From: a bacterium
GTDB taxonomy: Bacteria > Patescibacteriota > Saccharimonadia > Saccharimonadales > Saccharimonadaceae
Length of the DNA stretch: 34,917 nucleotides
NCBI GenBank assembly: GCA_030452455.1
Contig: JAKDMF010000001.1
Span: 1 to 34,917 of the forward strand
Reading direction: 5' to 3'
The translations under genes were made by a program, and so were the position numbers. The notes under the pieces were generated by a model. The model was not told where the DNA came from. It did no database searches and worked only from the letters and a program-made list of their open reading frames with translations. Within the stretch, counting starts at the first letter, position 1; every line of letters starts with the position of its first letter. Below, in pieces: positions 345-16,785 of the stretch.

Positions 345-1388
345 ATGGCAGATATAGATAGTGTACTAAATAAATTACTTGACGAGGCTCGCTCAGCTGA
401 TGAGCCGGCCGCAGTCCTAAAAAGCCCTGAACTCAAGGCTCTTTACAAGCAAATAGGTTCAATCGATCCCACCGAAAGAGCTGACTATGGCCGTCGGCTA
501 AACGACGCCAAAACCGAGCTTGAGCGGGTTGTCGCCGAGCGACTGGCTGAAATGACTGATGAATCTGTCGCGACGATCGACATCACGGCTCCATTCGACA
601 AGAACTCCGGCCGGCCAGATCTTTTACCGACTGACCAAGGCTCAATCCATCCATTGATGCAAGAAGTCGAAAAAGTTAGTGATATCTTTGGCCGAATGGG
701 ATTTCAGATCGAGCAGTCGCGTGAGCTAGATGATCAGTTTCACATGTTCGAAAGTCTTAATTTTCCCAAAGATCACCCGGCTCGTGATGACTACGATACA
801 TTCATGACCAAAGAAGCCGACGCCAATGGCGAAGCTTTGATTGCACCAGCTCATACCTCGACGATGCAATACAGAACTCTTAAAAAATACAAACATAAGC
901 TTGAAAATGGTGAACCGATTGCCGCGATCGTACCGGATCGCGTCTTTCGTAACGAAGATGTCGACGCTCGACACGAGCATACCTTTTACCAAGTCGAAGG
1001 CATCTACGTTTCCCGGGGCGTAAACGCTGGTATGTTGATAGCAACGCTTCAGAAGTTCCTAGAAGAGTACTATGGCAAGAAGCTTGAAGTCCGGGTAAAT
1101 CCGTTTTACTTTCCGTTTACCGAACCGAGCTTTGAGTTTGCTCTAAGTTGTCCGTTTTGTGGGGGTCAAAATACTGACTGTAAAGTTTGCTCCGGCGAAG
1201 GCTGGATTGAGCTACTCGGTTGTGGCATGATTCATCCCAACGTCTTGAAGCACGCTGATATTGACCCGAATGAGTACACTGGTTTTGCCTTTGGTTGCGG
1301 TATCGATCGATTAGTTATGATGAAGTATGGCATCGAAGATGTTCGCCATTTTCATAGCGGTAAATTAGACTTTCTGAAACAGTTCTAG
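345..1388 (+). CDS. pheS: Phenylalanine--tRNA ligase alpha subunit
   Basis: 347 aa. Class II aaRS motifs FPFTEPS, GWIELLGCGMIHPNVL and GFAFGCGIDRLVMMKYG are present, as is the Cys-rich knuckle CPFCGG..CKVCSG seen in Gram-positive-type PheS. Confidence 0.95.
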   Translation: MADIDSVLNKLLDEARSADEPAAVLKSPELKALYKQIGSIDPTERADYGRRLNDAKTELERVVAERLAEMTDESVATIDITAPFDKNSGRPDLLPTDQGSIHPLMQEVEKVSDIFGRMGFQIEQSRELDDQFHMFESLNFPKDHPARDDYDTFMTKEADANGEALIAPAHTSTMQYRTLKKYKHKLENGEPIAAIVPDRVFRNEDVDARHEHTFYQVEGIYVSRGVNAGMLIATLQKFLEEYYGKKLEVRVNPFYFPFTEPSFEFALSCPFCGGQNTDCKVCSGEGWIELLGCGMIHPNVLKHADIDPNEYTGFAFGCGIDRLVMMKYGIEDVRHFHSGKLDFLKQF

Positions 1389-1954
1389 ACTCGATAGATA
1401 AATTTCGTAACTCGGTTGCGGATACCACCGAACCCACTAACGATCGGCGGGACACCATCATCGGACTCTAGGCCGACTAGCAGGCAGGTGGCGAAGTAGG
1501 CTGGACCCATTAATATATATGAGGTCACCATCCAAGCTGGCGCGTGCAAACAGTCGCAAATCGCCAGCCCCGGATAGGCCACAGTGGCTATATTAACGAT
1601 ACCAAAAAAGTGATAGCCAAGCGTTTCCGCCACTAGTAACACTGGTATGTACATTGCCGTGAATAGTAGAAACTGCTTCCACCATTTATTAACTTTTAGT
1701 GCCCGGCGCAGGACTCTAAATAATAGATAGCCGGCAAATAGTCCCATTATCCAGGCAAACAGGCTAAATAGATTAACCCCAAAGATGGTCGTTACGGCAC
1801 TATTATAGTTATATTCCGCGTGAGATATAATCATCCAGATGCAGCCAAAGAAAGCAGCTACCAGTAAATGTTTTAGTAGATTACGTTTACGCACAAATTC
1901 AAGCACGATGACCGTGGCGACGAATAATATTATTAGGATAAATTCTTTGCTCAT
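1385..1954 (-). CDS. Polytopic integral membrane protein (about 5-6 TM), unknown function
   Basis: 189-aa ORF with repeated hydrophobic helices. It is convergent with pheS, and the two stop codons share the palindrome CTAG at 1385-1388. I recognise no family. Confidence 0.55.
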   Translation of the reverse strand: MSKEFILIILFVATVIVLEFVRKRNLLKHLLVAAFFGCIWMIISHAEYNYNSAVTTIFGVNLFSLFAWIMGLFAGYLLFRVLRRALKVNKWWKQFLLFTAMYIPVLLVAETLGYHFFGIVNIATVAYPGLAICDCLHAPAWMVTSYILMGPAYFATCLLVGLESDDGVPPIVSGFGGIRNRVTKFIYRV

Positions 1955-2057
1955 ATGTATGACTTTCTAGGCCAGCCTACAGCTGCTTGTGCTTATTATA
2001 CTATGGATTTCAAGTAGCGCCTGACATATACGATGATTATAAAACATCAACTTACGA

Positions 2058-2086
2058 TTGACATCGGCGCAAATTTAATAGATTAT
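2058..2086 (+). promoter_or_regulatory. Sigma70-type promoter TTGACA-17 nt-GATTAT for the AAA+ cassette
   Basis: TTGACA lies at 2058-2063, a 17-nt spacer follows, and GATTAT lies at 2081-2086. Downstream are SD GAGGAGAG at 2104-2111 and the ATG at 2117. Confidence 0.5.
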
Positions 2087-2116
2087 AGCTTGTAACATAT
2101 ATCGAGGAGAGATGGC

Positions 2117-3376
2117 ATGCGTGATGAGGCGAAGTTTCTAGAAATATCTAATCCTAAAAACGAGGAGCAAGATAGGCTGCTGTCAGAACGCGAAAACGCC
2201 ATTAGCCAAATCGGTGGTATAGCCCTCGAAGGTTTGGCCAGAATAGACAAGCCGGAGTCTCATTTTCTCTCGGAGCAAGCCGAGCAGGTCAAAGAGCTAG
2301 TCGCCGGCCACGACGAGGACATAGACTCAATTATGAATGCGATCAGCGGTCAGGCATTTCGTGATTCATCCGAACCATATTCGATGCTTATAACTGGACC
2401 AGAAGGATCGGGTAAGACCGAAACCGCCCAAGCAATCTCTGAGGTGCTAGCGGAGGGAAAGCATATCCGAGTCGACTGCTCAATGTTCCGACCGGGAACA
2501 GATCCTGCCGCTGTCATGGCGATTAGCTTCATCGAGGGCCAGGGTAATTTCAATTTAAAAACTGGAGATCCAGCCGAAGACTCAGACGAGACAGACGGAG
2601 TTCCAGACGTAGTGATATTTGAAAATATTGAAACAGCCGACCAATCTTTCCATGACTATCTGTCTAGTGGCGCCATGAAAGATGGTAAATTCGTCATAAC
2701 TACTACCCAGGGCATGACAGCGATAACTGTATCAGACAGTCTATTTATATTTACTAGCCGGCTAGGAACCGGAGCTTATAGCGGCAGTGCGGGCTATAAA
2801 ATGAATGCTGGCATGTATCCAAAAACTGAGTCCGGCCACATGTCAAAAGCCGAAATTAAAGACGAATCTGATAAACAGATGAGCAAGATATTCGATGATG
2901 ATTTTCAGGATATGATCGGCCACAGGGTTTACTACGAATCACTTAGTGATGCTGATCTTGGCGACGTGCTGAGTAATTATGTGGCTAACTACGAGGGTTA
3001 CCAAAGGTACGGCATTGAGGTAAACCTACCAGACGAAATACGTGACGAGATCGTTAAAAGCGTCAACGAGAAAAAACGCAACGCTACGACAGTAGTCCGC
3101 CAATATAAAAGACTTATCGAACCTGACATATCGCGGATGGCGGCAAGCGGTAATATACCAAGCAATCACCAGGTGTTTATTGTTAAGGACGAAAACGGTG
3201 AATATGCGTGCTTCGGTAAACCGGATACTAATAAGTTAATCAATGAGCTCAATGTCGTCCGCAGCCAGTTCTACCCGCTTATTAATCGTGAAGAAGATTT
3301 AATCCAAGCTCTAGAAGACCAAGGCGTTGGATTTGACGAAAAAGGTAACCCAGTGCTGGATGAAGACTCGGTCTAG
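2117..3376 (+). CDS. Stand-alone Clp/Hsp100 D2-type AAA+ protein with degenerate catalytic motifs (likely a non-hydrolysing paralog)
   Basis: 419 aa, collinear with the next gene and with the D2 ring plus small domain of ClpB/ClpA/ClpC. Walker A GPEGSGKT is intact. The Walker B position reads VVIFEN (DE to EN, nt 2621-2626). Sensor-1 N is replaced by R (FTSRLG). The GYVG pore loop is replaced by EGQG. FRPEF..NR becomes FDDDF..DM. The sensor-2 Arg is replaced by Thr (NATTV). Confidence 0.8.
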   Translation: MRDEAKFLEISNPKNEEQDRLLSERENAISQIGGIALEGLARIDKPESHFLSEQAEQVKELVAGHDEDIDSIMNAISGQAFRDSSEPYSMLITGPEGSGKTETAQAISEVLAEGKHIRVDCSMFRPGTDPAAVMAISFIEGQGNFNLKTGDPAEDSDETDGVPDVVIFENIETADQSFHDYLSSGAMKDGKFVITTTQGMTAITVSDSLFIFTSRLGTGAYSGSAGYKMNAGMYPKTESGHMSKAEIKDESDKQMSKIFDDDFQDMIGHRVYYESLSDADLGDVLSNYVANYEGYQRYGIEVNLPDEIRDEIVKSVNEKKRNATTVVRQYKRLIEPDISRMAASGNIPSNHQVFIVKDENGEYACFGKPDTNKLINELNVVRSQFYPLINREEDLIQALEDQGVGFDEKGNPVLDEDSV

Positions 3377-3450
3377 TAGCTAGTCCGGGCCGATGCGCTA
3401 CAAAGTAGCATATTTGAAAATTAAAGAGTGATCAAGCTAGGAGTAGTAGT

Positions 3451-4977
3451 ATGGCTAATGCGCGTAATATAGAATCAGTAAATCATAAATTTCCACAGTT
3501 TTTGGCTAGCCCCGATGGACTGCCGGAAATGGAAAATCTAACCATGGCTGAGCGCAGGCGCCGACTCGGTGCCGGCGCACTCAAAAGTTTTGTACGAGCT
3601 GAGCAGTTAGAGCAAAGCCCTTTGCAGAATATCGAGAACACCCTAAAAAGTAAGTTGGTGGGACAAGACAAGGCCGTTGATGCGATTGTCGAAGCCTTGA
3701 CGCGTGAATCATTGCAAAACCCGAATCAGCCAATCGCTAATTTTATGTTTCTTGGTCCGTCTGGTGTCGGCAAGACCGAGACTGCCAAAATACTGGCTAA
3801 TCTAATTCATGAAGGCAACGATGAAGACTTTGATAATCTGATAAGAATCGACTGCTCGGACTACAAGGGCGGACACGAAATAGCTAACCTAACCGGCTCA
3901 CCCCTAGGTTACGTCGGCAGTGACAAAACACCTAAACTATCACGCTCGGCCGTTGAAGGCGGTGGCGGCAAGACAGTTATATTGTTTGACGAAATCGAAA
4001 AAGGCTCGACTGAACTATACGACCTGATGCTCCATATCATGGATGACGGAACACTTGAGACTATGGGAGAGACAAGCGAAAAAGTCTCTTTTAGTAACAG
4101 TATTATCATCATGACTAGTAATCTTGGCTCGGAAGAGATCAATCGGATCACCAGTGGTAAATCGACTGGTTTTAGTCCAAACGTCGACTCAAGCAAGGCT
4201 AATATTTCAGACAAGCAAATCGAAATCTCAGCCATGGATGCCATGGGCAAGATATTCCGACCCGAATTTATAAACCGAATCAGTAAAAACGTTATATACA
4301 ATGGATTTAACGATGAGCAACTTGGTGATATCGTCGACGTTCGAATCGACCGTGAAAACGAACGTTATCGTGATCATGGCTACAACTTGACTATTTCAGA
4401 GGCTCTGCGCGATCATGTGGTTAATATGACCGAGGACCGCCGTCAGTACAATGCCCGTACTGTGCTGCGTAATTACGAAAAGACCGTAGAGTCTGGCCTT
4501 GCCGAGCACTATATGGCTGGCACTATCCCAGTTGGTAGTGAGGTCTACGCCGACTTAACAGAGGCTGGCGATGCTACCTTCATGTATTCACGCAGCCCAG
4601 CTCTGGAGTATCAAGCTGGAGTTATGGCGCAAGCGCGTGATCAAAAGCGCTTGCAGGCTAAAGCCGAAATTGCCCGTAACCAAGCTTCACGGAATCAGGC
4701 TGAAGCTGAGGACTCGGAGTACGAGGAGTCGAGCTATAGCCAGTGGACTATCCACGGCGAGGCTGCAATCATCGGCACTCGTGTCATTACCGATTCTTTC
4801 TCGCTGGAGGAGATGTATGATGACGGAGAGATATCAGCAGTTCTAGCCTTTGATGTTGCTCGAGAAATGGGCTGGCTTAATGATAAATTATGGGTTTTGG
4901 ATAATGATAACCCCGAGTCCGACAAGAATTCTACGAACACCGATAAAGATGATAGCTCAACCGGAGAATCTGACTAA
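3451..4977 (+). CDS. Stand-alone ClpA/ClpB/ClpC D2-type AAA+ ATPase with all catalytic motifs intact
   Basis: 508 aa with Walker A FLGPSGVGKTE, Walker B ILFDEIEK, pore loop GYVG, sensor-1 MTSNLG, FRPEFINRI and sensor-2 NARTVLR. There is no N-domain, D1 ring or M-domain. About 130 aa form an acidic C-terminal extension. SD AGGAG is at 3439-3443. Confidence 0.85.
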   Translation: MANARNIESVNHKFPQFLASPDGLPEMENLTMAERRRRLGAGALKSFVRAEQLEQSPLQNIENTLKSKLVGQDKAVDAIVEALTRESLQNPNQPIANFMFLGPSGVGKTETAKILANLIHEGNDEDFDNLIRIDCSDYKGGHEIANLTGSPLGYVGSDKTPKLSRSAVEGGGGKTVILFDEIEKGSTELYDLMLHIMDDGTLETMGETSEKVSFSNSIIIMTSNLGSEEINRITSGKSTGFSPNVDSSKANISDKQIEISAMDAMGKIFRPEFINRISKNVIYNGFNDEQLGDIVDVRIDRENERYRDHGYNLTISEALRDHVVNMTEDRRQYNARTVLRNYEKTVESGLAEHYMAGTIPVGSEVYADLTEAGDATFMYSRSPALEYQAGVMAQARDQKRLQAKAEIARNQASRNQAEAEDSEYEESSYSQWTIHGEAAIIGTRVITDSFSLEEMYDDGEISAVLAFDVAREMGWLNDKLWVLDNDNPESDKNSTNTDKDDSSTGESD

Positions 4978-5020
4978 TATAAAATAAGTTGCAATGCACG
5001 CAGCTTTTGTAGTAAGGTGG

Positions 5021-5029
5021 TGTTAAAAT
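5021..5029 (+). promoter_or_regulatory. Candidate extended -10 box TGTTAAAAT upstream of the 231-aa ORF
   Basis: TGTTAAAAT lies at 5021-5029, about 28 nt before the ATG at 5057. Confidence 0.35.
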
Positions 5030-5056
5030 AATACCCCAGGAAATGTAGCAATAACC

Positions 5057-5752
5057 ATGGAAAATTTATCAAAGAATTTAACAAACGGTGATGATCCAAT
5101 CATAGAGATAATGCCTCGCATTGAAGGCGCGCAGATTGAAGAGGTCGGCAACTATATTATCGATGTACTGGGCTCGGACAGATCGAACGAAGAACGTACT
5201 ATGCACGAAGCCGAGTGGTGTGACGAGCAGGACAGTAAGTATCGTCTCAAGCGCTACGTTCAAGATGATTCAGTCCGCCTTTCTCTTGATGTATATAAAT
5301 CCTTACAAAATGATGAGCCTTTTTTGAGTCTGTCTTATGTCAACAAGAACGGGAAATATGATGCCTGTATTTTTGACCCTGAAGCAACCGAGCGAAAAAG
5401 GCTAGCTGTCGATAAGTCAGTCGCACGACAGGAAATTCTTGAGAATCTAGCTACGTCGGGGCTTGTTTCGATCGAAAAAGCTACAACTGAGGCGGAGGAC
5501 GCTAAGTACTGGGACATTGCACTGGCTTCAATCGCCGAAAGACAAGACGTACTCTGGGCGACAAAGCGTGGTCAGGACTCACCGGTTAATCAGTCAAGCG
5601 AGCATATCTACGATGAAGTCAGGGAGGTGATTGAGAAAATTGAACCCGACCTACCGATGCGAGCTGTTAATCGGATAATCGACCAAGCGCTGGCGCAAGT
5701 TTATCCAAACGATCTACCAGAGCTACCGCCAGCTAGCAGTGACGCAATTTAG
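5057..5752 (+). CDS. Acidic hypothetical protein, last gene of the pheS-pheT intervening cassette
   Basis: 231-aa ORF on the same strand, directly after the two AAA+ genes. It is D/E-rich, has no TM segment and carries no motif I recognise. Its SD is weak (AGGAAA). Confidence 0.5.
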   Translation: MENLSKNLTNGDDPIIEIMPRIEGAQIEEVGNYIIDVLGSDRSNEERTMHEAEWCDEQDSKYRLKRYVQDDSVRLSLDVYKSLQNDEPFLSLSYVNKNGKYDACIFDPEATERKRLAVDKSVARQEILENLATSGLVSIEKATTEAEDAKYWDIALASIAERQDVLWATKRGQDSPVNQSSEHIYDEVREVIEKIEPDLPMRAVNRIIDQALAQVYPNDLPELPPASSDAI

Positions 5753-5798
5753 TCGATCTATCCGACCATAAGTTTATTGCACCTCATACCGTAACATC

Positions 5799-5807
5799 TG
5801 CTATACT
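5799..5807 (+). promoter_or_regulatory. Extended -10 box TGCTATACT dedicated to pheT
   Basis: TGCTATACT lies at 5799-5807, with the ATG 11 nt downstream at 5819 and no SD. This implies pheT is transcribed independently of pheS. Confidence 0.45.
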
Positions 5808-5818
5808 TATTATCAGAT

Positions 5819-8362
5819 ATGAAGGTAAGTTTAAACCATATAAAAAACTATATTGATTTTGAGCTACCGCCGGTTGATGAGCTAGTCGACAGAATAAACC
5901 GACAGCTCGGTGGCGTTGAAGAAGTTATAGATTTAGCGTCTCGATACAAAGAGGCTCGGATCGTCGTTGTCGCTAGGTGTGAAAAGCATCCTGACGCTGA
6001 TCGACTTAGTGTCTGCTTGGTCGACGACGGTGGTGTAACCGATGGTGTCGAGCGTGATGAAGACGGTTTGATCCAGGTTGTTTGCGGTGCGCCGAATGTT
6101 CGCGGCGGCATGACGGCCGTTTGGCTGCCACCAAAATCAGTTGTACCGGCTAGCGCCGATGACGACGAGCCGTTTGTTCTGTCGGCTCGTGAGCTTCGAG
6201 GCGTCATGAGCCAGGGTATGCTAGCCGCTCCAGACGAGTTAGCTATTGGAGAGGGCCACGATGGAATATTAGAGATCACCGAGAATGATTTGCCACAAGC
6301 TGTAGCTTTTAACGATAAAATAATCGGTCGAAGCTTCGGCGAAGTGTTTGGGCTCGACGATACTATTATTGATATTGAAAACAAAATGTTCACGCATAGA
6401 CCTGATTTATTCGGACAGCTTGGTGTGGCACGTGAAATCTCGGCAATTATGGGTGGCACGACAGCAGCTGATCAGGACTTTGTCGATACCCATTTTATTA
6501 ATCCTGACGAATATTGGAAGATGCCTGATTTTGAAAAGGCAAGTGACCTTAACTTAGAAACGTTCAATGAAGCCGGCGATAAAGTGCCGCGGGTTATATT
6601 TGTTGCCATGAATAGCATCGAGGTAAAACCAAGTCCACTGTGGTTACAATGTGAGTTGGTCGCGATGGGTGCCAAGCCGATTAATAATATTGTCGATACC
6701 ACCAACTACCTTATGCTGACGACCGCTCAGCCAACTCACGCCTATGACTATGACAAGATTAGCGGACACAAAATCGGTGCACGTATGGCGCGTGACGGTG
6801 AAAAGATTAAACTCCTCAACGACAAAGAGTATGAGCTGACATCTGACGATATCGTCATAGCTGACGGCGATAAGCCGGTTGGCCTGGCTGGAGTCATGGG
6901 CGGTAGTGAGACGGAAGTCGATAAAAACACTAAAAATATCATCCTCGAAGTAGCGACATTTGATATGTATGCAGTCCGAAAATCTAGCATGAGACATGGG
7001 GTATTCACTGACGCACTAACACGATTCAACAAGGGTCAATCCCCACTGCAGAATAATAGAATTACTTACATGCTCATGAATCAGATCGGACAACTGTCTG
7101 GTGCATCACAGGCTAGCGATGTTTACGATATCTCTAGCCAAGATTGGAACCGCGTACTATCACTCAGCGGCGAGATTAAAGTTAGTCGTGACTTTGTCGT
7201 TAGTCGATTGGGTGTTGATTTGACACTGAGTCAGATAGGTAATTTACTTCGTCGAACTAATTTTACATCTTATCCGGATGAGGATGATGAAGATACACTT
7301 GTGATCGCAGCTCCTTTTTGGCGAACTGATATTAGTTTGCCCGAAGATATCGTCGAAGAAGTTGGTCGATTGTATGATTTTGGTAAACTACCACGCGAGC
7401 TGCCGGGTCGCAGTATCTCACCGAGCCAACTAAACCCAATCGTCGAACTGAAACAAGCTATCCGAAAGTTGCTGAGCCAGGCGGGTGCCAATGAGGTTTT
7501 AACCTATAGTTTCGTTCACCGGAATTTGATTCAGAAGACCGGCCAGTCAATCGATAGAGCTTATCAGCTAAGTAACGCCCTGAGCCCTGACTTACATTAC
7601 ATGCGCATAAGTCTGCAGCCGAGTATACTCGATAAAGTATATAGCAACATCCGTGATGGACACGATAAATTTGCGCTGTTTGAAATCGGCACCAGCCATG
7701 ACAAGAATAAGTTGGATGATAGTAAGCTTCCACTGGAGCCGAGTCGACTGGCGCTTGTTTATGTCAATAAGCACAAGCAGCCCGGGGCGGCCTACTATGA
7801 TGCCAAAAGAGCCTTGGATTTTCTAGCCAGTAAACTAGGTGTCCAATTAGATTACAAAAATACTAATATCGAAGATGACCAAATTGGCACTATGTTTGAG
7901 CCGAAACGACGGGCGGCTATCTTTGCCCGGAGCAGTGGAGAGCCGATCGGTGTCATCGGTGAGTATACAGCCGCTACTCGAAAAGCTTATAAGTTACCAG
8001 ACAGTAGCGCCGGTTTCGAAATTATACTCGATAAAATAGTCGCTGGTGCTACCGGCCTCCATGACTATCAAGTGCTCAGCCGCTACCCGTCGGCCGAAAG
8101 AGACGTTTGCTTTAAATTAGCTGACGAAATTGAGTATCAAAAACTAGTCGATGAAATCGATTCTCAGCTGAGCAATAAATCAATTCGCTATAGTGTTTCG
8201 CCGGTCGATATTTATCAAGCTGCGGGCGACTCAACTAAGAATATTACAGTCCGTATTAAGCTAACTCCGATCGAGCGTACGCTCAGCGGACAAGACATCG
8301 ACCAGATCGTAAACAGTACCGCAATTCAAGTCTGCCAAAAACTTGACGCCGAAATTGTCTAA
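5819..8362 (+). CDS. pheT: Phenylalanine--tRNA ligase beta subunit
   Basis: 847 aa. The N-terminal EMAP/tRNA-binding domain is present (CEKHPDADRLSVCLVDDG..VCGAPN), followed by a B3/4 region, a B5 region and a C-terminal anticodon-binding-like domain. Length and order are typical of bacterial PheT. Confidence 0.95.
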   Translation: MKVSLNHIKNYIDFELPPVDELVDRINRQLGGVEEVIDLASRYKEARIVVVARCEKHPDADRLSVCLVDDGGVTDGVERDEDGLIQVVCGAPNVRGGMTAVWLPPKSVVPASADDDEPFVLSARELRGVMSQGMLAAPDELAIGEGHDGILEITENDLPQAVAFNDKIIGRSFGEVFGLDDTIIDIENKMFTHRPDLFGQLGVAREISAIMGGTTAADQDFVDTHFINPDEYWKMPDFEKASDLNLETFNEAGDKVPRVIFVAMNSIEVKPSPLWLQCELVAMGAKPINNIVDTTNYLMLTTAQPTHAYDYDKISGHKIGARMARDGEKIKLLNDKEYELTSDDIVIADGDKPVGLAGVMGGSETEVDKNTKNIILEVATFDMYAVRKSSMRHGVFTDALTRFNKGQSPLQNNRITYMLMNQIGQLSGASQASDVYDISSQDWNRVLSLSGEIKVSRDFVVSRLGVDLTLSQIGNLLRRTNFTSYPDEDDEDTLVIAAPFWRTDISLPEDIVEEVGRLYDFGKLPRELPGRSISPSQLNPIVELKQAIRKLLSQAGANEVLTYSFVHRNLIQKTGQSIDRAYQLSNALSPDLHYMRISLQPSILDKVYSNIRDGHDKFALFEIGTSHDKNKLDDSKLPLEPSRLALVYVNKHKQPGAAYYDAKRALDFLASKLGVQLDYKNTNIEDDQIGTMFEPKRRAAIFARSSGEPIGVIGEYTAATRKAYKLPDSSAGFEIILDKIVAGATGLHDYQVLSRYPSAERDVCFKLADEIEYQKLVDEIDSQLSNKSIRYSVSPVDIYQAAGDSTKNITVRIKLTPIERTLSGQDIDQIVNSTAIQVCQKLDAEIV

Positions 8363-15972: not shown

Positions 15973-16785
15973 CTATTTGCCATCATCACCATAAAAAACC
16001 GTGAAGGCATCTTGTGGTGTTAGGTTGTGATAGAGCCTACCGTTACCACCATCCGGTGGCTGCTTGTAGAAGCAGAAGTCCGACGTCAGGTCGCCGTCCA
16101 TACCGTACCTAGTGACTGTCTCTAGCGACGGTACGAATGCCACATAGGCATAGCCATCAGCGTCAGTTACCATATACTCCACCACACCATGTCTGGTGTA
16201 GTCTTTTGAGTAATCGACATCAACATCAGAGAACAAATCGGAGTCATAGGCAAGTTGAAGCTCAGCCTGGCTGATGCTCATCTTGGCATAGGAAACGAGC
16301 GTGTAACCCATTTCCTCTAATGCCTCGCGATTTTTTCTGTCCGATGGTTCTTGTCGAGCCAGGAACCTGGGATCAAGCGAGTCAGGTACCCAGTAGTAAT
16401 CAGGTTCGATAACTAAGAGTTCGGACTCTGCCACTTGACCATAGGTATAGACAGTGAACAGACCTTGATTGTAGTTCTCGAGAGTTTGACCGTAGTTGTC
16501 GTCGAAGCTGCCTTCGGCCGAATCAATTGTCGGTGACTCAGTTGGCTCCGTTAACCATTCCGGTGACTCCTCGGGTTCGGAACTAGCCGGGCTAGGTGTG
16601 CTAGTGTCGACTGCGTCTGGAGATTGACTCTCCGGGCGGGTAGTTTTGGCGCTAGTAACGCAGCCGCTCAACACGAGCGCTAGGCAAGCTGCAATCGCAA
16701 TAACCAGACTGGCTAGTCGGATAGCGGACTTTGGTACGGAATTCATATTCATATCAATAACCACTCTCTGTAGGGTGCTTTGCAT
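15973..16785 (-). CDS. Acidic secreted lipoprotein, unknown function
   Basis: 270-aa ORF with a signal peptide and lipobox (LALVLSGC). A low-complexity S/P/E/T linker follows, then a D/E/Y-rich ~180-aa domain I do not recognise. The true start may be the internal Met at 16752. Confidence 0.6.
   Translation of the reverse strand: MQSTLQRVVIDMNMNSVPKSAIRLASLVIAIAACLALVLSGCVTSAKTTRPESQSPDAVDTSTPSPASSEPEESPEWLTEPTESPTIDSAEGSFDDNYGQTLENYNQGLFTVYTYGQVAESELLVIEPDYYWVPDSLDPRFLARQEPSDRKNREALEEMGYTLVSYAKMSISQAELQLAYDSDLFSDVDVDYSKDYTRHGVVEYMVTDADGYAYVAFVPSLETVTRYGMDGDLTSDFCFYKQPPDGGNGRLYHNLTPQDAFTVFYGDDGK

Follow-up and report, generated by a model that had tools for sequence, protein, structure and literature searches.

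ClpX, ClpA and ClpC dock onto ClpP through a [LIV]-G-[FL] loop, which ClpB does not have. AAA+ proteins are also found as pairs of an active and an inactive member, such as Torsin with LAP1/LULL1 and FtsH with FtsHi. In this study, we analysed a window of 34,917 nucleotides (nt) from a bacterium of the Saccharimonadaceae (GenBank assembly GCA_030452455.1, contig JAKDMF010000001.1, positions 1 to 34,917), in which a cassette of four genes separates pheS and pheT, the genes of the two subunits of phenylalanyl-tRNA synthetase (PheRS). An earlier note, made from the sequence alone, had proposed the cassette as a selected, lineage-specific module and a candidate for an undescribed system. Our results showed that the junction of pheS and pheT is plastic throughout the family and that the four genes form a vertically inherited set of one clade. 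This set is likely a proteostasis module, namely a ClpP-coupled unfoldase with a pseudo-ATPase partner; we give this reading as a whole a probability of roughly 0.55.

The cassette encodes a basic polytopic membrane protein of 189 amino acids (aa) on the minus strand (1385–1954), followed on the plus strand by a 419-aa degenerate single-ring Clp-D2-type protein (2117–3376), a 508-aa intact single-ring ClpC-D2-type AAA+ ATPase (3451–4977) and a 231-aa acidic orphan protein (5057–5752; isoelectric point, pI, 4.4). The 508-aa protein shares with the D2 ring of ClpC the Walker A and B motifs, GYVG, sensor-1, FRPEF, sensor-2, the D2-small domain and a GF-containing loop at the aligned position. ClpC has an N-domain, a D1 ring and an M-domain in addition, whereas the 508-aa protein is a single ring with TGF in the loop, an additional domain and acidic tail at its C-terminus and a pseudo-ATPase paralogue encoded beside it. 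The truncated architecture and the invariant GF loop are also seen in stand-alone single-ring Clp-D2 ATPases (annotated 'ClpA/ClpC' by the source pipelines), which differ in lying at other loci, with no degenerate paralogue beside them and no C-terminal extension. Human CLPB/Skd3 resembles the 508-aa protein in that a single D2-type AAA+ ring works without D1 (PDB match at E ~1e-27), but it is eukaryotic and mitochondrial, carries ankyrin repeats, has no ClpP-type loop and is far more distant than ClpC. Torsin/LAP1 and FtsH/FtsHi are comparable to the cassette in combining a competent AAA+ protein with a conserved, catalytically dead paralogue. LAP1 supplies an arginine finger, whereas the apparently dead 419-aa protein has no finger and keeps its Walker A motif.

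The pheS–pheT junction in related Saccharibacteria

All six open reading frames (ORFs) from pheS to pheT were intact and lay exactly where the earlier note had placed them. The left border is pheS (PheRS alpha subunit; 345–1388, plus strand), recognised by Pfam tRNA-synt_2d (9e-81) and Phe_tRNA-synt_N, with which the membrane-protein gene is convergent, overlapping the pheS stop by 4 nt. The right border is pheT (PheRS beta subunit; 5819–8362, plus strand), with the Pfam domains tRNA_bind, B3_4, B5, tRNA_synthFbeta and FDX-ACB. Both proteins are complete, with all domains present. The closest PheS proteins in species-representative genomes were at most 73% identical and belonged to oral and environmental Saccharibacteria (Nanosynbacter-like).

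A total of 80 related pheS loci (L001–L080) were taken with 10-kb flanks, and pheT was located by tblastn. Among the 37 loci in which pheT was reached, it was adjacent to pheS (≤24 bp) in five and 449 bp away in one, while in the other 31 the gap measured 2.4–9.5 kb; in a further 18 loci, pheT did not appear within a full 10 kb downstream of pheS. The 532 ORFs in the gaps fell into 110 families. Common gap genes encoded alpha/beta hydrolase, CYTH, HIT, pyridine-nucleotide-disulphide oxidoreductase, ASCH, SLOG/DprA-like, FtsX and histidine kinase proteins, and HxxEH-motif (M16-like) proteins were found as well. The content was a mosaic that differed between lineages by gains, losses, inversions and duplications, and none of the four cassette proteins of the window occurred in the gaps of the related pheS loci examined. 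Since the gaps differ in length (0 to >10 kb) and in gene content, and none has the cassette of the window, the junction is a plastic zone across the family. We found no paper on the separation of pheS and pheT in Saccharibacteria.

These results change how the position of the cassette is to be read. The earlier note had treated an insertion inside pheS–pheT as remarkable, which does not hold in a family whose members routinely have variable stretches of other genes, 2.4 to >10 kb long, at this site. It had also held against its own proposal the case that the two genes are routinely separated by unrelated, variable genes with no conserved cassette. The first part of that case is true; a conserved cassette nonetheless exists in the window's own clade.

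Conservation of the cassette within its clade

Four other lineages, designated L081, L082, L095 and L096–L098, carried these four genes between pheS and pheT in an unchanged order. L081 is an 873-kb ENA contig, and L095 and L096–L098 are partial instances; the L081 and L082 contigs were found via the closest homologues of the 508-aa protein (54–60% identity). The shared arrangement is pheS, the membrane-protein gene (minus strand), an AAA gene of ~410 aa, an AAA gene of ~500 aa, the 231-aa gene, pheT and ndh. The identities of the flanking proteins to those of the window were 86% for PheS (L081 orthologue), 71–74% for PheT, 82% for Ndh, 90% for GDPD, 89% for PPase, 88% for RelA and 92% for GAPDH. 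Within the cassette, they were 69–72% for the membrane protein, 69–71% for the pseudo-ATPase, 54–57% for the ATPase and 52–57% for the orphan, and the most divergent segment comprised the C-terminal region of the ATPase and the orphan.

All cassette ORFs were intact across the clade. Ratios of nonsynonymous to synonymous substitution (dN/dS) were 0.078 for the membrane protein, 0.048 for the pseudo-ATPase, 0.04–0.05 for the ATPase, 0.054 for the orphan and 0.092 for pheT; these are rough Nei–Gojobori values between the closer lineages, with dS near saturation, and are only indicative. At that level, they indicate purifying selection on all four cassette genes. As judged from these comparisons, the cassette has been inherited vertically for a long time and was not inserted recently. 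The proposal of a selected, lineage-specific module is therefore borne out by four other lineages with the genes in this order and position and by the indicated purifying selection; the cassette does occur as a unit elsewhere, but in its own clade only.

The cassette could also be what remains of a prophage or other mobile element that had inserted into the pheST operon. Its GC content is slightly lower than elsewhere (0.45–0.47 vs ~0.48–0.50) and its tetranucleotide distance is mildly high (0.163 vs a window mean of 0.140, standard deviation 0.014, i.e., ~1.7 standard deviations above), which would fit such an origin, but its codon usage lies inside the range of the window's other genes. The hallmarks of mobile elements are absent, as the earlier note had observed: no integrase or transposase domain was found in the Pfam, NCBIfam and PADLOC scans, no tRNA gene was found in the window, and no meaningful repeats were found flanking the cassette. 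The PHROG matches were limited to the generic Clp protease family, and scans of IMG/VR returned no orphan relatives, only generic Clp D2 proteins of 31–37% identity. Nor does the cassette resemble a genomic island, as it has no recombinase, tRNA or repeat borders and as five lineages, whose flanking proteins have diverged to 71–92% identity, share its position and gene order. A mobile origin is thus scarcely credible, and we rejected it.

The ATPase pair

The 508-aa protein was matched by the Pfam models AAA_2 (124 bits, cut-off 27; E 7e-36) and ClpB_D2-small (34 bits, cut-off 21.9). All of its motifs were intact, including Walker A (GPSGVGKT, nt 3754–3777), GYVG, Walker B (LFDEIE), TSN, FRPEF and AR..LR, which agrees with its earlier description as an intact Clp-D2-type ATPase. 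The best NCBIfam match was ClpB TIGR03346 (1.7e-64; 218 bits vs a cut-off of 1232), with TIGR02639 at 184 vs 993 bits, and the matches to ClpB, ClpA and ClpC models were confined to their D2 part (model positions ~550–850). No Clp_N or AAA (D1) Pfam domain was found in the protein, and it does not have the two-ring Hsp100 architecture. The best PDB matches were to the ClpC D2 ring (E 3.6e-54), and the first 50 residues aligned to the end of the D1-small domain of ClpC and the linker, which identifies the protein as an N-terminally truncated ClpC-like protein. Its TGF loop (aa 239–241, nt 4165–4173) is located at the position of the ClpP-docking VGF/AGF of ClpC. The Gly-Phe pair (G240/F241) was invariant in an alignment of 15 single-ring relatives, in most of which the preceding residue was I, L, M or V.

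A C-terminal extension of ~120 aa (~aa 385–508, nt 4603–4974) combines a charged linker with a small conserved domain (pattern W...LE.MYD...W) and an acidic tail (pI 4.2). The extension is specific to the cassette clade and is the fastest-diverging part of the protein, with 33–55% nucleotide identity to L082. It is absent from the nearest relatives outside the clade, which are single-ring proteins of 407–432 aa with 39–47% identity (P0005–P0019). Each of these has a single gene, located elsewhere, for example behind those of RNase Y and NUDIX or behind that of an aminoacyl-tRNA synthetase, and no degenerate paralogue lies alongside; the P0008 gene is followed by one for a 295-aa protein of no known family.

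The stand-alone relatives themselves make up a family of N-terminally truncated single-ring ClpC-D2 proteins in Saccharibacteria and contigs resembling the candidate phyla radiation (CPR), with P0005–P0019, P0095 and the loci L083, L086 and L089 as members. We found no paper on single-ring ClpC-like ATPases in CPR. In L083 (11503–15294), a Gabija-like pair (an OLD-family ATPase/TOPRIM protein and a UvrD-type helicase) is encoded ~2 kb downstream of the stand-alone Clp gene; next come a 210-aa protein without a family and then MazG-like and HNH genes.

The 419-aa protein had a weak Pfam AAA_2 match (26.8 bits vs a cut-off of 27; 6e-6), aligned over its full length to the ClpC D2 ring and was ~26% identical both to the cassette ATPase and to the stand-alone family. 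Its Walker A motif, GPEGSGKT (aa 94–101, nt 2396–2419), conforms to the canonical GxxGxGKT. In Walker B (FENIE, aa 168–172), DE was replaced by EN; the pore loop GYVG was lost; sensor-1 changed from N to R, the arginine finger from FRPEF to FDDDF and sensor-2 from GAR to ATT; and the position of the ClpP loop carried [A/V]GY in place of xGF. Walker A was thus the only one of six catalytic motifs to be kept, the five others being replaced, as expected of the degenerate Clp-D2-type protein that had been described. The degenerate states were the same in the four orthologues compared (window, L081, L082 and L096), and the dead copy was better conserved than the active one (~70% vs 54–57% identity). 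This identical loss of motifs, together with the higher conservation, marks the 419-aa protein, on the strength of the alignments, as a maintained pseudo-ATPase. It probably still binds nucleotide, as its Walker A motif would suggest. No relatives of it were found in two JGI metagenome scans.

The orphan and the membrane protein

The 231-aa orphan matched nothing in Pfam, NCBIfam, PADLOC, PHROGs or the PDB sequences, including a profile search of the PDB. A cluster search of 5.8 billion proteins returned three matches, all from this clade, and a profile search of 1.84 billion representatives returned three remote relatives (E 1e-31, 4.5e-11 and 5e-9), whose neighbourhoods gave only generic two-component matches when compared with the plastic-zone genes. 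An AlphaFold2 model built from a six-sequence alignment reached a mean predicted local distance difference test (pLDDT) score of 70.8, whereas a three-sequence alignment gave 49.7 and was unusable. In the model, the N-terminus is disordered, and the fold comprises one helix, an antiparallel sheet of five strands and five further helices. Foldseek found nothing similar to it at E≤0.001 in the PDB or BFVD; p32/Mam33-like and actin-capping folds were considered and dismissed, as the matches were faint (TM-scores of 0.15–0.3).

The membrane protein has 4–6 hydrophobic segments and a pI of 9.4. It was 69–72% identical in L081, L082 and L096, and its invariant residues are H45, E47, E110, H115, C133, C135 and H137. 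It also had no match in Pfam, NCBIfam, PADLOC, PHROG or the PDB, including a search with an alignment profile, and its four matches in the search of 5.8 billion proteins were all from this clade. The profile searches proposed by the earlier note therefore divide the cassette: the two ATPases fall into the Clp superfamily, and only the acidic and the membrane protein are truly uncharacterised.

The lineage of L095 and L096 is the sister of L082, with identities of 88–89% for the ATPase, 90% for the pseudo-ATPase and 84% for PheT. The orphan of L095 (1504–2199) does not follow this pattern. It is 90% identical to the orphan of the window and 56% identical to that of L082 (3797–4492), and is incongruent with the ATPase and pheT that flank it. 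The switch points lie in both flanking spacers, at window positions ~4990–5000 and 5750–5790. The L095 orphan represents either a gene-precise exchange of alleles or a strain-chimeric contig, and a 56–66-nt identical block beside pheT could have mediated the exchange or the chimera.

In a quite improbable reading, the cassette would be a self-contained, undescribed module of regulated remodelling or antagonism. It would form a hetero-oligomeric single-ring Clp machine with an active subunit, a nucleotide-binding dead subunit, fast-evolving specificity parts and a membrane anchor or target. Specificity would reside in the fast-evolving C-terminal domain of the ATPase and in the acidic partner, whose alleles would be exchanged between co-occurring strains, by analogy with components that act in immunity, as effectors or in phage sensing. 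The anchor or target would be the small Cys/His-rich membrane protein.

Another idea is that of an anti-phage defence system with a ClpB-like ATPase, similar to Dodola or PDC-M37, in a variable island. PADLOC matched the 508-aa protein to PDC-M37B (2.9e-28) and DolB (4.2e-26) and the 419-aa protein to DolB (1.4e-10); the site is a hypervariable gap, and the orphan evolves quickly, perhaps with an exchange of alleles. However, what the 508-aa protein shares with DolB and PDC-M37B is the AAA_2 core (PADLOC E 1e-26 to 1e-28); the matches span this generic core only (aa 49–235) and are far weaker than those to ClpB and ClpC. In Dodola, DolA (DUF6414) stands beside DolB, and no DolA-type partner is present at the cassette. 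For PDC-M37, only the M37B models matched and the M37 partner genes are absent; the orphan and the membrane protein match no PADLOC model. Inheritance is vertical, at one locus in one clade, and not patchy, the gap genes of relatives are metabolic or regulatory rather than defensive, and IMG/VR held no relatives beyond generic Clp proteins. A defence role is therefore very unlikely, and we rejected it on the ground that the matches are generic to the ATPase core and the partners are absent.

Transcription and translation signals

The region between the divergent membrane-protein and 419-aa genes (1955–2116) contains promoter-like sites, a Shine–Dalgarno (SD) sequence and conserved blocks. On the plus strand, TTGACA (2058–2063) and GATTAT (2081–2086), spaced by 17 nt, gave the best promoter match in 9 kb (10/12), and the SD sequence GAGGAGAG at 2104–2111 precedes the 419-aa gene. 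In the same 9 kb, 14 promoter-like matches were found vs 14.5 expected by chance. In L081 and L082, the orthologous spacers retain the −35 and −10 elements and GAGGAGAG but vary at adjacent positions, and it is this conservation, not the match count, that supports the site at 2058–2086. The independent promoter and strong SD that the earlier note had assigned to the plus-strand genes are thus upheld. A minus-strand promoter-like site runs from 2064 to 2036, and a conserved block with a minus-strand TATAAT is located upstream of the membrane-protein gene (~1981–2006; kept in L081 and L082). The three plus-strand genes are spaced 74–79 nt apart behind the one conserved promoter and SD; the 508-aa gene has an AGGAG SD sequence, and the orphan has a weak and distant one only.

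An extended −10 element, TGCTATACT (TGnTATACT), precedes pheT at 5799–5807. It lies in a conserved pheT-proximal block (5791–5818, plus strand), at which a run of 56 nt from 5791 is identical in the window, L082 and L095, while the rest of the spacer diverges. The suggestion that pheT has its own extended −10 is strengthened by this identity across three lineages. As the ATG of pheT follows the −10 by 11 nt and has no SD sequence, the pheT mRNA is probably near-leaderless. An Rfam scan at gathering thresholds assigned no family in the window, and no regulatory RNA such as a T-box or leader was found.

Proposed function of the module

In the reading that we prefer, the plastic zone is of long standing, with differing accessory genes kept by the lineages of the family and pheT under its own promoter, and both cassette ATPases would descend from a stand-alone single-ring Clp ATPase of Saccharibacteria or CPR-like contigs. 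The 508-aa copy is predicted from its motifs to be a competent ATP-driven protein unfoldase, and as its xGF loop sits at the docking position of ClpC, ClpA and ClpX, it would most likely feed substrates to ClpP through this loop. The 419-aa copy would bind nucleotide without hydrolysing it, would offer no arginine finger and would lack the pore-loop tyrosine; it most likely serves the active copy as a non-catalytic partner, a regulator or an adaptor. Two candidates for recognising substrates or adaptors are the acidic 231-aa protein and the C-terminal domain that the active ATPase has only in this clade. The divergently transcribed membrane protein is co-inherited with them.

Several observations weigh against this reading. 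The tripeptide of the window is TGF, whereas the usual form is hydrophobic-G-F. No match to ClpP was found in the window or in 1.5 Mb of related loci, which are small parts of the genomes and were searched with a Bacillus subtilis ClpP query; clpP has been reported in TM7x, a related Saccharibacterium (bioRxiv 10.1101/2022.03.25.485537). In a strictly alternating hetero-hexamer, each site would be short of either the catalytic glutamate or the arginine finger. Such a ring would be dead at every site, which makes a different stoichiometry or separate assembly more likely. The contigs of the remote orphan relatives carry no AAA+ neighbour. Furthermore, the orphan of L095 was apparently exchanged independently of the adjoining ATPase, which weakens a strict functional link between the two.

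The first two of these points would suit a ClpB-like, ClpP-independent disaggregase or remodeller, possibly acting in a membrane-associated process with the 189-aa protein. The first residue of the loop is Thr and not hydrophobic, ClpP was not seen in the window or the related loci examined, the best NCBIfam match is to ClpB, and human CLPB/Skd3 (PDB matches 7ttr and 7us2) provides a precedent for disaggregation by one D2 ring on its own. However, ClpB has no loop insertion, which here is present and GF-invariant; the best PDB matches are to ClpC, a partner of ClpP; and the 508-aa protein has neither an M-domain nor an N-domain for cooperation with DnaK. We regard this alternative as distinctly unlikely.

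The points on the orphan also bear on whether the cassette is a functional unit. The gap could simply collect unrelated accessory genes; the ATPases would then be an ordinary duplicated chaperone, with independent roles for the orphan and the membrane protein. In keeping with this, unrelated genes make up a mosaic in the gap throughout the family, the remote orphan homologues occur in contexts without AAA+ genes, the L095 orphan resembles that of the window while its adjoining ATPase and pheT follow L082, and the membrane-protein gene is on the opposite strand. The opposite is suggested by the presence of all four genes together in every lineage of the clade seen and by the 74–79-nt spacing of the plus-strand genes behind one conserved promoter and SD. 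The membrane protein and the pseudo-ATPase were also confined to the clade in the search of 5.8 billion proteins, and the pseudo-ATPase was absent from both metagenome scans. An assortment of independent genes of this kind is unlikely in our view, and the reading as a ClpP-coupled unfoldase with a pseudo-ATPase partner is the one that we retain.

Other genes of the window

The rest of the window is core chromosome, with genes for an NADH dehydrogenase-like oxidoreductase, FKBP, a thioredoxin-reductase-like protein, GDPD, pyrophosphatase, RelA/SpoT, GAPDH, pentose-phosphate enzymes, UvrB, GatA/B and DnaE. Immediately upstream of pheS (89–337), an 82-aa protein with a C-terminal hydrophobic anchor is encoded, which keeps its place before pheS in most relatives (39–54% identity, 81% in L081) and whose sole Pfam match is a weak one to DotU (E 0.0017). 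A 270-aa ORF on the minus strand (15973–16785), between the GAPDH and pentose-phosphate genes, has no Pfam match at E≤1e-5.

Implications for Saccharibacteria

The term undescribed system proved too strong for the cassette, because paralogues of its two largest genes already exist as a stand-alone single-ring Clp-type family in other Saccharibacteria and CPR-like contigs. The cassette is a modest, lineage-specific variant, half of which belongs to a well-known superfamily; its clade is rare in public data, and long-standing open questions are not addressed by the finding. For the family, the results show that pheS and pheT do not form a tight operon; instead, genes have repeatedly been gained, lost and rearranged at their junction, which matters for annotation based on synteny and for the study of flexibility in reduced genomes. 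They further draw attention to single-ring ATPases of Saccharibacteria and CPR-like genomes that derive from ClpC, carry a ClpP-type docking loop and are uncharacterised. If the two ATPases of the cassette interact, they would provide a compact natural example of the regulation of a Clp unfoldase by a pseudo-enzyme amid a minimal proteostasis machinery.

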